From assembly GCF_054482595.1 (NCBI RefSeq), contig NZ_CM137008.1: DNA of 64,000 nt; one strand, given 5' to 3'. Below, piece by piece: positions 41,801 to 44,800 of this stretch (its first letter is position 1; each line of letters starts with the position of its first letter). A program made the position numbers.

Positions 41801-44800
41801 AAGTATTGCCCTGCATTCTGTGGGGCGGGGTGGGTTGGTATGAAAAGAAGGATACCCATAGGTATTTAAAAAGTAAATACCCATGGGTAACTTTTTGCGG
41901 TGTCTTAACTGGTGACTAGTTGTTTGGTGAGCTATGATGCGTTTTGTGCTTTCTTTTTACGGATTTCTTCGTAGATCATATTGTAATACTGTTTTTTCTC
42001 TTCAAGAGTTTTTAATAAGTTATCCGCTTCACTTTCTGGCAGTTCGTCTAAGAGATCTAAAAAAATACGTTGTCGTGGCGTTAGAACCCTTGTTTCATAA
42101 CTGGAGGCTGTGTTCGTTGATGATGAAACGATACCATCCATCCATCCCCGGGGTAACCCAAAGGACTCTTCGATAATCTCCACCATATCATCAGCGATCC
42201 GTTTTTTTCCCTTTTTCCCCTCTGGGTACAACATTCTTGATACATAAGAAGGCTCGCGCCCGATCTTTCTGGCCACGTTAACCGCTTTACCATCGCATTT
42301 CTCATCACGAATTTTGATGAGTTGCTGTCGTCTAAATTCATATTTGTCCATAGGTAAATAATAGATGCGATTACCGCAAGGTAAACAACCTGTGGGTATT
42401 GACTTTTGTTTACCTGTGGGTATTCTTTACTGTGTTTACTAAGGAGTAGCTATGGAAGAATTAAGAATATTTCTCAATTCTCTTTCGTCAGATGAACAGC
42501 GTATGTTTGCATGCGAGTGTGGTACCAGCATCGGTTATCTAAGAAAGGCATTGAGTAAAGGTCAAGTGTTAGGGGCATCGTTATGCGTCCTTATTGAGCG
42601 AGCCAGTAATGGTGAAGTTACACGTCAGCAACTAAGGCCTTTTGATTGGATGAATATTTGGCCCGAGCTGGAAGATACCAAAACGTTAACACAACCACTT
42701 TCTAGGAGCTTGATTCATGAAAATCAAGCATGAACACATCCGCATGGCGATGAATGCCTGGGCGCATCCGGACGGTGAAAAAGTTCCGGCAGCTGAAATA
42801 ACCAGGGCTTATTTTGAACTGGGTATGACGTTCCCAGAACTGTATGACGACAGCCATCCGGAAGCCCTGGCTCGCAATACCCAGAAAATTTTCCGCTGGG
42901 TAGAGAAAGACACCCCTGATGCAGTTGAAAAAATTCAGGCGTTGTTACCAGCGATCGAAAAGGCAATGCCACCTTTGCTGGTGGCCAGAATGCGCAGCCA
43001 CAGTTCAGCTTATTTTCGGGAGCTGGTGGAGACGCGGGAGCGACTGGTGAGAGACGCTGATGATTTTGTCGCAGTGGCAATCGCCGGTTTCAATCAGATG
43101 AACCGTGGTGGCCCGGCAGGAAATGCTGTGGCAGTACATTGACTGACAATAGCCATATCGAATCGCTTCCGGCAACTCGTGAGTAAAAAGATTCGGTATC
43201 AGAAGAGGTGAGTATGGCTAACGCCTGGCTCAGATTATGGCATGACATGCCAAATGACCCTAAGTGGCGAACAATTGCCAGGGTGTCAGGGCAGCCAATT
43301 GCAACAGTGATGGCAGTGTATATCCACCTCCTGGTGAGCGCGTCACGAAATGTCACGCGAGGTCACATTGATGTCACGACAGAAGATTTGGCAAGTGCGC
43401 TCGACGTGACAGAAGAGGTAATTGATTCAATTTTGCAGACGATGCAGGGGCGGGTACTTGATGGTGATTTAATCACTGGATGGGAAAAACGCCAGGTGCT
43501 TAAAGAGGACAACGGCAATATTTCGCAAACCGCAAAATCTCCTGCAGAGCGCAAGAGGGCGCAGCGAGAGAGGGAAAGAAAGCGGGAACAAAATGGCGAT
43601 TGTCACGGCGCGTCACGAAATGTCACGCACATGTCACGACGAGTCACGACAGATAAAGATACAGATAAAGATACAGATCAAGAAGATCAAAACACTATGG
43701 TCCATGGCGTAAAAAACGCCACGAACCAGGCAGGGGATGTTCAGACCGTCAATCTTGGTCAGCCAGCAGGCACGACACCGGAAGCCGATTCAGCGTATGC
43801 GCTGAAAGCCGATTCGGGCGCTGTGCAGCAGGTGATGACCGCAAGGCTGGAGCAATCACACCAACTGCAGCAGCCCGAAGCCGATTCCGCCATTCAGCGG
43901 GAAGCCGATTCCGCCATTCAGCGGGAAGCCGATCGGGTAGTCCCGGAAAACACCGGGCAGTCTGTGGGACGAGTGGATTATCCGGATGTGTTCGAACAGG
44001 TCTGGCGGGAGTACCCGTTGCGTGCCGGAGCAAACCCGAAGAAATCCGCTTTCAGTGCCTGGAAGGCCAGATTACGCGAGGGGGTGCCACCAGAGGCCAT
44101 GCTGGATGGCGTGAGGCGTTACGCAAGATACTTGGCGGCTACCGGGAAAACGGGAACGGAATTTGTTCAGCGAGCGACGACGTTTTTTGGACCGGACCGG
44201 AATTTTGAGAACCCCTGGTTGCTCCCGGTAAGCGGCACGAACAACCAGCGTTGTGTGAATCATATTTCTGAACCGGATAACGAAATTCCGCCGGGCTTCA
44301 GGGGGTAAGTGTTAATTTCTGGTCATGAGGTAATTTTCAGGAGGGCTTGTGGCAAAAGTTTTTACACAAGAAGAGCGGGAAAAAATTAAAGGACAGGTTG
44401 TTGAACTCGTACGCCAGAGTGGGCGTGAGACGTTACGGCAACTGGAAGTCAAGACAGGTGCGACAAGATATCTGATGAGCGTTCTCGCAAGAGAGCTGGT
44501 TGCCAGCGGCGATGTATACAACTCTGGTTACGGGTTATTCCCGTCTGAACAGGCGCGTAAGGACTGGCAAAATGCCCGTAAAAAGCTCTCAAGGGCAAAG
44601 CTGAAGAAACCATCTGCGGTTGATCCGGACCTTATCTGGTCATTACCAGACGGAGAAATACGCCGCTACGACAGGCGCCTGAATATAATCTGTCGCGAGT
44701 GCCGGAAGAGCGAAGCTATGCAGCGTGTACTGGCTTTCTATCAGGGTAATTTTCAGGAGGCGGTACTGTAAGTGAAATTAGCTATCAGGCTTCAATTGCC

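Follow-up and report, generated by a model that had tools for sequence, protein, structure and literature searches.

Do the closely spaced GTCACG hexamers inside the replication-initiator gene of a lambdoid prophage mark the origin from which that prophage replicates, and is it the encoded protein that reads them? We addressed this question in a stretch of 64,000 nucleotides (nt), one strand of contig NZ_CM137008.1 (RefSeq assembly GCF_054482595.1), which we call the window and whose numbering is used for all coordinates. An original prediction, made from the sequence alone, had described helically phased hexamers within the gene and likened them to the lambda origin inside gene O. Our analysis of the sequence indicates that the GTCACG clusters are very probably iterons bound by the encoded initiator and very probably make up, with an AT-rich tract at 43649-43700, the prophage's origin of vegetative replication. 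The elements concerned are the following.

43214 to 44308, plus strand: replication-initiator gene, 364 amino acids; an open reading frame that matches phrog_3729, with its ATG at 43214 after an AGAGG ribosome-binding site.
43342 to 43378, plus strand: putative iteron cluster A, with copies at 43342, 43352, 43362 (GTCACA) and 43373, spaced 10, 10 and 11 bp apart.
43405 to 43410, minus strand: inverted GTCACG, 32 bp past the last direct copy of cluster A, encoding Asp-Val-Thr at the turn between helices H2 and H3 of the protein.
43602 to 43648, plus strand: putative iteron cluster B, with copies at 43602, 43612, 43622, 43633 and 43643, spaced 10, 10, 11 and 10 bp apart, in DNA coding for the linker (residues 130-145).
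43338 to 43358, plus strand: 21-bp block GCGCGTCACGAAATGTCACGC, duplicated exactly at 43608 to 43628; it covers two iterons and the spacer between them and is common to clusters A and B.
43649 to 43700, plus strand: AT-rich tract, the proposed DNA-unwinding element, GC content 0.35-0.37, directly 3' of cluster B and purine-rich on this strand.

A sequence search of the plus strand returned eight exact direct copies of GTCACG, and the GTCACA at 43362, which carries one mismatch, stands in register with the copies that flank it. Together with the inverted copy, this makes nine exact copies (eight direct, one inverted) and one variant in two clusters, 43342-43410 and 43602-43648, about 260 bp apart. 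The prediction of nine to ten copies in two clusters at 10-11-bp spacing, with a 21-bp block repeated exactly between them, was thus borne out, except that the inverted copy is out of phase with the direct copies of cluster A. It had also spoken of hexamer iterons. The hexamers are indeed repeated, but the bare hexamer is not the unit: alignment of the ten copies gave a repeat of 10-11 bp with a core of about 7 bp, (T/C/G)GTCACG(A/C).

Such a concentration is not expected by chance. The window holds 36 GTCACG/CGTGAC sites, nine of which fall within 307 bp where 0.13 would be expected (Poisson P = 2.6e-14). When all hexamers of the 64-kb window were scanned, GTCACG was the most clustered, every other hexamer reaching at most six copies per 310-bp span, and no second GTCACG array was found elsewhere in the window.

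The prediction had suggested that an adjacent AT-rich unwinding segment be sought, and one was found immediately past cluster B, the predicted core origin array. The tract at 43649-43700 has an AT skew of about 0.5, with a strong excess of A on the top strand; it includes three 12-bp tandem units at 43649-43684 (ACAGATAAAGAT twice, then ACAGATCAAGAA) and encodes the acidic peptide DKDTDKDTDQEDQ. Duplex stability was calculated from nearest-neighbour energies for 40-bp stretches, and the weakest stretch of the gene starts at 43652, with a dG of -44.7 kcal/mol against a gene mean of -58.9 kcal/mol, which places it at the 99.2th percentile of the window. The motif GATAAAGATACAGA that follows cluster B is kept in a high-GC Pseudomonas phage. 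Among relatives, the 50 nt past cluster B have a GC content of 0.435 against 0.581 for the gene, the value being lower than that of the gene in 91 of 99, and this tract is again purine-rich, of the type AGATAAGAGTAGAGAAGA.

A further element borders the tract on its right.

43698 to 43728, no strand assigned: imperfect palindrome, TGGTCCATGGCGT aaaaa ACGCCACGAACCA, its arms 13 bp and its loop 5 nt long.

The palindrome scores as a terminator-like hairpin on the minus strand; a scan for promoters and terminators gave counts not above those of shuffled sequence. Neither a DnaA box (with at most one mismatch) nor an IHF consensus was present near the repeats. Two GATC (Dam) sites, at 43676 and 43685, lie 9 bp apart within the AT-rich tract, the sole other one in 43100-44400 being at 43931; they could provide SeqA or Dam input to the origin.

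Repeats inside a gene may be no more than the trace of a repeated peptide, and the prediction had named this as an outcome that would refute it. We checked for it, and the objection fails. The hexamer is read as gcG TCA CGa (Ser-Arg), as GTC ACG (Val-Thr) and as gGT CAC a or tGT CAC g (Gly-His or Cys-His), and because the copies occupy all three codon phases, the repeats are DNA-level rather than peptide-level. Across the family the three phases were counted 250, 304 and 157 times, with 711 direct against 73 inverted copies, and the period of 10-11 bp is no multiple of 3. Synonymous sites are also over-conserved. When only codons for identical amino acids were compared, and the rest of the N-terminal domain was taken as the outside, 17 of 22 codons inside cluster A were identical between the Escherichia coli and Pseudomonas versions, against 17 of 46 outside (p = 0.004); for E. 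coli and Aeromonas the figures were 16 of 21 against 16 of 48 (p = 0.0015). In cluster B the peptide changes between hosts while the DNA repeat stays (CHGASRNVTHMSRRVTT vs DDVTQCHAESRNVT).

The same gene carries a different kind of repeat, a 24-bp tandem repeat, GAAGCCGATTCCGCCATTCAGCGG, at 43876-43923 (wider family 43778-43935), which encodes EADSAIQR in a constant frame and has looser GAAGCCGATTC copies upstream. The gene of coliphage Tritos has one 24-bp unit fewer, and this is the sole indel between it and the gene in the window. In contrast to the GTCACG repeats, the 24-bp repeat has the look of slippage within a disordered linker.

Do the repeats follow the protein? Searches with tblastn showed the initiator to be modular. 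Its C-terminal part is common to many 'O-like' proteins of Stx and mEp-type phages, and its N-terminal 110-140 residues or so are common to Pseudomonas phages (phita81A, P7869, PACT201 and others) and Aeromonas phage pAEv1818, with 67-74% identity. The Pseudomonas and Aeromonas versions have a different C-terminal part and a different next gene (primase/helicase in Pseudomonas, helicase-like in Aeromonas), and despite a higher GC content they carry GTCACG clusters at matching gene offsets, +129 to +160 and +389 to +420, followed by GATAAAGATACAGA. A variant of the module in E. coli O157:H7 (L371; strain F8798, chromosome 2912106-2917510; 83% identity in the origin) bears two or three additional copies in cluster A, which insert 'TCHGVTT' into the protein; it retains the N-terminal domain and the iterons, its C-terminal part is another one, and a lambda-P-like gene follows. 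At the level of sequence, this variant shows recruitment modules apparently swapped around a constant origin-reading head. Relatives without the repeats had been the other anticipated refutation; the relatives compared here keep them at the same positions although the remainder of the gene has been exchanged.

We extended the comparison in two surveys. When IMG/VR was scanned for the exact pattern of three GTCACG spaced 10 bp apart, at least 120 contigs matched, many of them twice at a distance of 270-320 bp. We analysed 125 loci (120 contigs from the scan, four earlier phage loci and the window), and among the matches listed the same N-terminal domain is encoded by 86 of the 125. Most of the remaining loci from the scan encode initiators of other PHROG families (2509, 9474, 10469, 345, 2149 and 270) with a GTCACG triplet in the linker, giving peptides such as SRDVT, CHVT and SRNVT. 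Triplets in linkers joined to other N-terminal domains were seen in the IMG/VR loci L006, L020, L049, L057, L066, L067, L070, L103, L116 and L122. As judged from these matches, the GTCACG iteron type extends well beyond this protein family, mostly in high-GC phages.

A scan by pattern is biased towards the pattern, and the second set therefore consisted of 160 relatives chosen by protein similarity alone, 157 of which were scored. Distant sequences served as first queries; the E. coli sequence in that role returned only 100%-identical prophage copies. Repeats were called phased when one hexamer occurred at least four times at 9-12-bp spacing in the first 620 nt. This was the case in 110 of the 157 relatives and in none of the controls (about 150 upstream, 150 downstream and 157 codon-shuffled sequences), in which the maximum was three copies. 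All repeat types share the form GNNACG(C), namely GTCACG, GCAACG, GTGACG, GTAACG, GAAACG, GGAACG and CGAACGC, and the repeats occupy conserved places in the gene. Among relatives with phased repeats (n = 116), cluster B was present in 103 (median first copy at nt 367), cluster A in 84 (median nt 132) and both in 71. The copy number of cluster A ranges from 3 to more than 10. In three IMG/VR loci (L230, L241 and L246) it consists of 10-14 copies of GTGACG, and the loop between helices H1 and H2 is longer by tens of residues; in such expanded clusters a predicted cis-acting site dictates an insertion in the protein. The hosts of the repeats are gamma- and beta-proteobacteria, with more distant relatives in cyanophages.

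If the initiator reads the repeats, protein and repeat should change together, and we examined the alignment of relatives for residues that do so. An AF2 model built on an alignment of 113 sequences (pLDDT 85) gave a winged helix (H1, 29-45; loop, 46-55; H2, 56-63; H3, 67-77; wing, 78-87) followed by a disordered stretch and then a basic helix. Mapped onto this model, cluster A corresponds to residues 43-55, which make up the last part of H1 and the loop between H1 and H2.

43541 to 43585, plus strand: basic helix PAERKRAQRERERKR, residues 110-124, a helix in the AF2 model; its coding DNA holds no iteron copy.

In 72 relatives with a callable iteron type, residue 114 was the best predictor of that type among all alignment columns (conditional entropy 0.44 bit), followed by residue 117 (0.89 bit). 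GTCACG goes with K/Q at these two positions in 14 of 14 cases, GCAACG with S/H, GTGACG with T/Y or T/W, GGAACG with K/W, CGAACG with A/W, and both GTAACG and GAAACG with V/Y or V/F. On a neighbour-joining tree made from the other columns, the Fitch steps numbered 21 for iteron type, 25 for residue 114 and 26 for the joint state; because the joint state needs only 26 steps, changes in iteron type and in residue 114 coincide. The window and L271, which are 72% divergent, share both the iteron and K/Q, and L291 and L305, which are 20% divergent, differ in both iteron type and residue. Among the alignment columns of the relatives, those of H3, the 'recognition' helix, showed no comparable association with iteron type. 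Near cluster B, RK..QR was found in 65 of 82 GTCACG-selected family loci among the matches listed. We propose K114 (codon 43553-43555) and Q117 (codon 43562-43564) as candidate iteron-specificity residues. Of the computational evidence for the repeats being read by the encoded protein, the covariation is the strongest, and it makes the basic helix the likely reading head. As a universal mark of GTCACG users, RK..QR was rejected, being absent in most initiators of other families.

Several observations weigh against an origin read by the initiator. Fewer than four exact phased copies were found in 47 of the 157 relatives, some of which may hold degenerate repeats missed by an exact-hexamer count. 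Cluster A is absent from about 30% of the repeat-bearing relatives and has no comparably AT-rich neighbour; because of these two facts its role may be regulatory rather than initiating. The inverted copy is kept in the Pseudomonas, Aeromonas and Firinga homologues and is present in just 14 of 80 relatives bearing cluster A, so that we dropped it as a general family feature; on the sequences compared, it is a lineage-specific feature of uncertain role. Among the matches listed, 17 of the 82 GTCACG-selected loci do not have RK..QR near cluster B. Some of these exceptions are artefacts of frame or position, but two loci, L007 and L115, genuinely read DRQRAKR and DRQRRHR, and the rule for residue 114 is not absolute. 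Finally, the module is without a phage-encoded helicase loader.

Any explanation has to accommodate what we observed here, namely repeats that are phased, conserved as DNA and inherited together with the N-terminal domain, that covary with the protein, and that are accompanied by a conserved tract of low stability. One could suppose that the initiator binds the clusters mainly for control, by autorepression, as a transcriptional roadblock, by titration or by 'handcuffing' between clusters or genome copies, and that unwinding takes place elsewhere. Iterons of iteron plasmids have established dual roles in initiation and control, and the position of cluster A in the 5' third of the gene without a strongly AT-rich neighbour, its dispensability in the relatives mentioned above, its variable copy number and a distance between the clusters that would permit looping all fit this supposition. 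We nevertheless consider it unlikely, for a weak tract directly 3' of cluster B in 91 of 99 relatives gives the layout the signature of an origin, not of an operator, and the window offers no other GTCACG array; moreover, control and initiation are compatible with each other. It is more improbable still, though conceivable, that another factor reads the repeats for regulation, packaging or recombination, be it a protein of the host or the product of a neighbouring phage gene such as the cII/YdaT-like or the Ren-like one. The phased triplets in the linkers of initiators of PHROGs 2509, 9474, 10469, 345 and 2149 would suit a shared external reader. Against it, the neighbouring genes are wholly different in the E. 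coli, Pseudomonas, Aeromonas and Ralstonia versions, yet the repeats persist; the hosts are as diverse as described; the sequence of the repeats covaries with a residue within the initiator itself; and the sites for DnaA and IHF that were sought were not there.

That the repeats have no function as DNA, being slippage products or a repeated peptide motif (SRNVT or CHxxSR) in a tolerant loop and a disordered linker, we regard as scarcely credible. In the model both clusters do code for surface-loop or linker segments, and the 24-bp repeat at 43876-43923, of variable copy number and constant frame, shows that this gene can harbour repeats of such a kind. But this explanation is already contradicted by the data: by the three codon phases and a period that does not fit codons, by a cluster B whose DNA is conserved when its peptide is not, by the over-conserved synonymous sites, by codon-shuffled controls that never reach four phased copies, and by covariation of the repeats with a distant residue. 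An origin whose iterons are bound by the encoded initiator thus stays our preferred reading.

The end of the protein offers a hint of how such an initiator may engage the host.

44231 to 44305, plus strand: C-terminal 25 residues of the initiator, SGTNNQRCVNHISEPDNEIPPGFRG, 15 of 25 identical to residues 155-179 of E. coli DnaT.

The two tails align as SEPDNEIPPGFRG (initiator) and SEPDSQIPPGFRG (DnaT), with 60% identity that includes the terminal SEPDxxIPPGFRG, and the DnaT chains 6aep, 2ru8 and 9zbt of the Protein Data Bank match only this tail. No similarity to DnaT was detected in the initiator outside its last 25 residues. The NCBIfam DnaT model (NF002770) gave 19.5 bits against a cut-off of 201, and we rejected the initiator as a DnaT, the similarity being confined to the tail. 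By its sequence, the tail is a candidate peptide for recruiting host machinery. YdaU of the Rac prophage ends in ...SAIPPGFRG, and the tail is common to both proteins; because YdaU also ends in this way, unrelated prophage initiators appear to share a mimic of the host-primosome tail. We considered Rac oriJ/YdaU as a known equivalent of the present system and rejected it: the N-terminal domain of YdaU is another one (DUF1376), phased hexamers are absent, and only the style of linker and the PPGFRG tail are shared. In a 2026 paper on the preprimosome, the binding partner of the extreme C-terminus of DnaT is not resolved.

How might initiation proceed? After induction, the initiator would be made from the early rightward operon. 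Its N-terminal part, a winged helix that may resemble the N-terminal domain of DnaD together with the basic helix 110-124, would bind the direct repeats head-to-tail, one protomer per helical turn and all on one face of the DNA. From the covariation we infer that the basic helix would read the invariant ACG and the variable dinucleotide of each GNNACG, with residue 114 as the main determinant and residue 117 contributing. The array on cluster B, possibly bridged to cluster A some 260 bp upstream by oligomerisation, would then strain the adjacent purine-rich tract until it opens. More speculatively, the swappable C-terminal domain would bring in the helicase, and this domain and the DnaT-like tail would presumably recruit host DnaB/DnaC or the PriA-PriB-DnaT pathway; recruitment of a host helicase is presumed because the module encodes no loader or helicase.

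A wider reading, possible but on balance doubtful, combines an evolvable recognition code, an iteron-encoded H1-H2 loop and linker, and a DnaT tail mimic that takes over the host restart primosome. One basic helix with the consensus S-A-E-R-x114-K/R-x-x117-R-E-R would read one GNNACG per turn, its invariant arginines holding ACG, and residues 114/117 would specify the dinucleotide, K/Q reading TC, S/H reading CA, T/Y reading TG, V/Y or V/F reading TA or AA, and A/W going with the CGAACG type. Head-to-tail assembly of the protomers into a polymer would be the task of the winged helix, putatively DnaD-like. With its binding sites placed within the gene, the origin would in effect write part of the protein: iteron-encoded peptides would make up both the H1-H2 loop and the linker and would grow as iterons are added (to more than ten copies in some relatives). 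The E. coli version would be a replication module of one gene that takes over the host restart primosome through its tail mimic.

As the prediction had stated, the repeats lie inside a replication-initiator gene. The initiator matches phrog_3729, 'replication initiation protein', with E = 1.2e-252 (residues 1-364 against positions 1-356 of the 356 in the profile) and also matches phrog_1701 and phrog_1408. It comprises an N-terminal winged-helix domain, the basic helix, an acidic linker and a C-terminal DnaD/DnaT-like domain. An in-frame GTG occurs at 43208, upstream of the ATG at 43214; the Tritos homologue is annotated from the same ATG. The gene occupies the replication slot in the cI-cro-cII-replication order of a lambdoid prophage: a divergent cI-like repressor (41932-42351, minus strand), a cro-like gene and a cII/YdaT-like gene come before it, and a Ren-like gene, several genes of unknown function, a Hok/Mok-like gene, an HNH protein, RusA and a Q-like antiterminator come after it. 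Among the genes 3' of the initiator in the module, none for a helicase or loader was found. The Ren-like gene (phrog_142, annotated in PHROGs as an exclusion protein) lies directly 3' of the initiator at 44349-44771, and a Hok/Mok-type host-killing reading frame lies about 2 kb downstream of it at 46377-46589.

Seven deposited coliphages (Tritos, Evi, 689R5 and others) carry the initiator gene with 96-97% identity. From its start to nt 640 the gene is 100% identical to that of Tritos, of which a complete phage genome is deposited, and all 13 substitutions and the one 24-bp indel lie 3' of there. The origin segment was present in 2076 of 5426 complete E. coli genomes (38%), O157:H7 included. 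Labels given to homologues vary: 'DNA replication protein O', 'Primosomal protein I', 'phage replisome organizer', 'DnaT-like ssDNA-binding domain-containing protein' and 'hypothetical protein'. The first two of these are not supported by profile tests. Neither the protein nor an alignment of 8 family members had a significant Pfam domain, and in particular there was no match to Phage_rep_O; with PHROG matches confined to 3729, 1701 and 1408, we rejected membership of the lambda O family. Phage_rep_org_N (PF09681, the SPP1 G38P type) was matched below threshold (E = 0.25 with the whole protein as query, 0.021 with the N-terminal part), in a collinear alignment of residues 5-123 with positions 1-119 of the 121 in the model, and none of the 8 family members reached E <= 0.001.

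The locus matters beyond the window: 38% of complete E. coli genomes have the module in a prophage, viable temperate coliphages carry it too, and its annotations are nevertheless limited to 'hypothetical protein', 'replisome organizer' or, wrongly, 'replication protein O'. A mapped origin would give coordinates for studies of prophage induction and replication and for incompatibility or origin-decoy tools. GNNACG units of one helical turn, a residue that tracks the repeat and a swappable C-terminal domain together make a compact, testable model of how the specificity between initiator and origin evolves, and the locus is an example of a cis-acting site that constrains the protein encoded across it.

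How does this system compare with those already known? Searches of the literature for a GTCACG iteron, origin or prophage, or for iterons of replisome organizers, found no description, which is weak evidence, since most subscription journals were outside the coverage. In lambda and the Stx phages the origin lies inside gene O, and Stx phages with six iterons have 13 extra amino acids (PMC7466680). Here, too, the predicted origin is within the initiator gene, at the boundary of an N-terminal DNA-binding part and a linker; an iteron array is followed by an AT-rich tract on one side; the gene comes after cI, cro and cII in the early right operon; and extra iterons lengthen the protein, as the additional cluster A copies do in the O157:H7 variant. 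The differences are as plain. Lambda iterons are 19-bp imperfect inverted repeats, whereas those described here are asymmetric 7-bp cores placed head-to-tail every 10-11 bp, in two clusters, one of them within the coding sequence of the N-terminal domain itself. Lambda needs the P loader, for which the present module has no counterpart, and no homology between the initiator and O was detectable. The comparison made by the original prediction therefore stands for the layout, with repeats and an AT-rich tract inside the initiator gene, and does not extend to protein homology or iteron form; 'lambda-style' applies to layout only.

The oriL of SPP1 lies inside gene 38 and consists of AB boxes with an adjacent AT-rich DNA-unwinding element (PMC5737612). 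Its initiator G38P is likewise a non-AAA+ protein with an origin of short repeats and an AT-rich unwinding element within its own gene, and close homologues of the present initiator are labelled 'phage replisome organizer' in databases, the match to PF09681 being sub-threshold (E 0.02-0.25). SPP1 differs in having its own loader G39P, its helicase G40P and a second G38P site, oriR, whereas the window holds a single array; we compared the two systems by layout and protein profile. The N-terminal domain of DnaD, the replication initiation and restart protein of Firmicutes, is among the closest known systems as a candidate likeness in fold. DnaT is a replication-restart adaptor and not an origin binder, which is the role proposed for the initiator described here.

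In plasmids, iterons measure 17-22 bp, tend to recur about every two helical turns and are found outside the coding sequence of rep. The origins of iteron plasmids (RepA, pi and TrfA types) resemble the present locus in their direct repeats, winged-helix initiator, adjoining AT-rich unwinding element and possible dual roles, and differ from it in that the units here are one turn long and inside the coding sequence. Rep proteins of iteron plasmids are described as contacting the unwinding element (PMC4081077).

The principle of an origin inside the initiator gene is already textbook knowledge from lambda and SPP1; the protein family described here is uncharacterised. The system differs from lambda and SPP1 in its protein family, in the form of its iterons, in its two clusters and, in E. 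coli, in a replication module of a single gene. The family-wide code is the part that, if confirmed, could set it apart from the known kinds.

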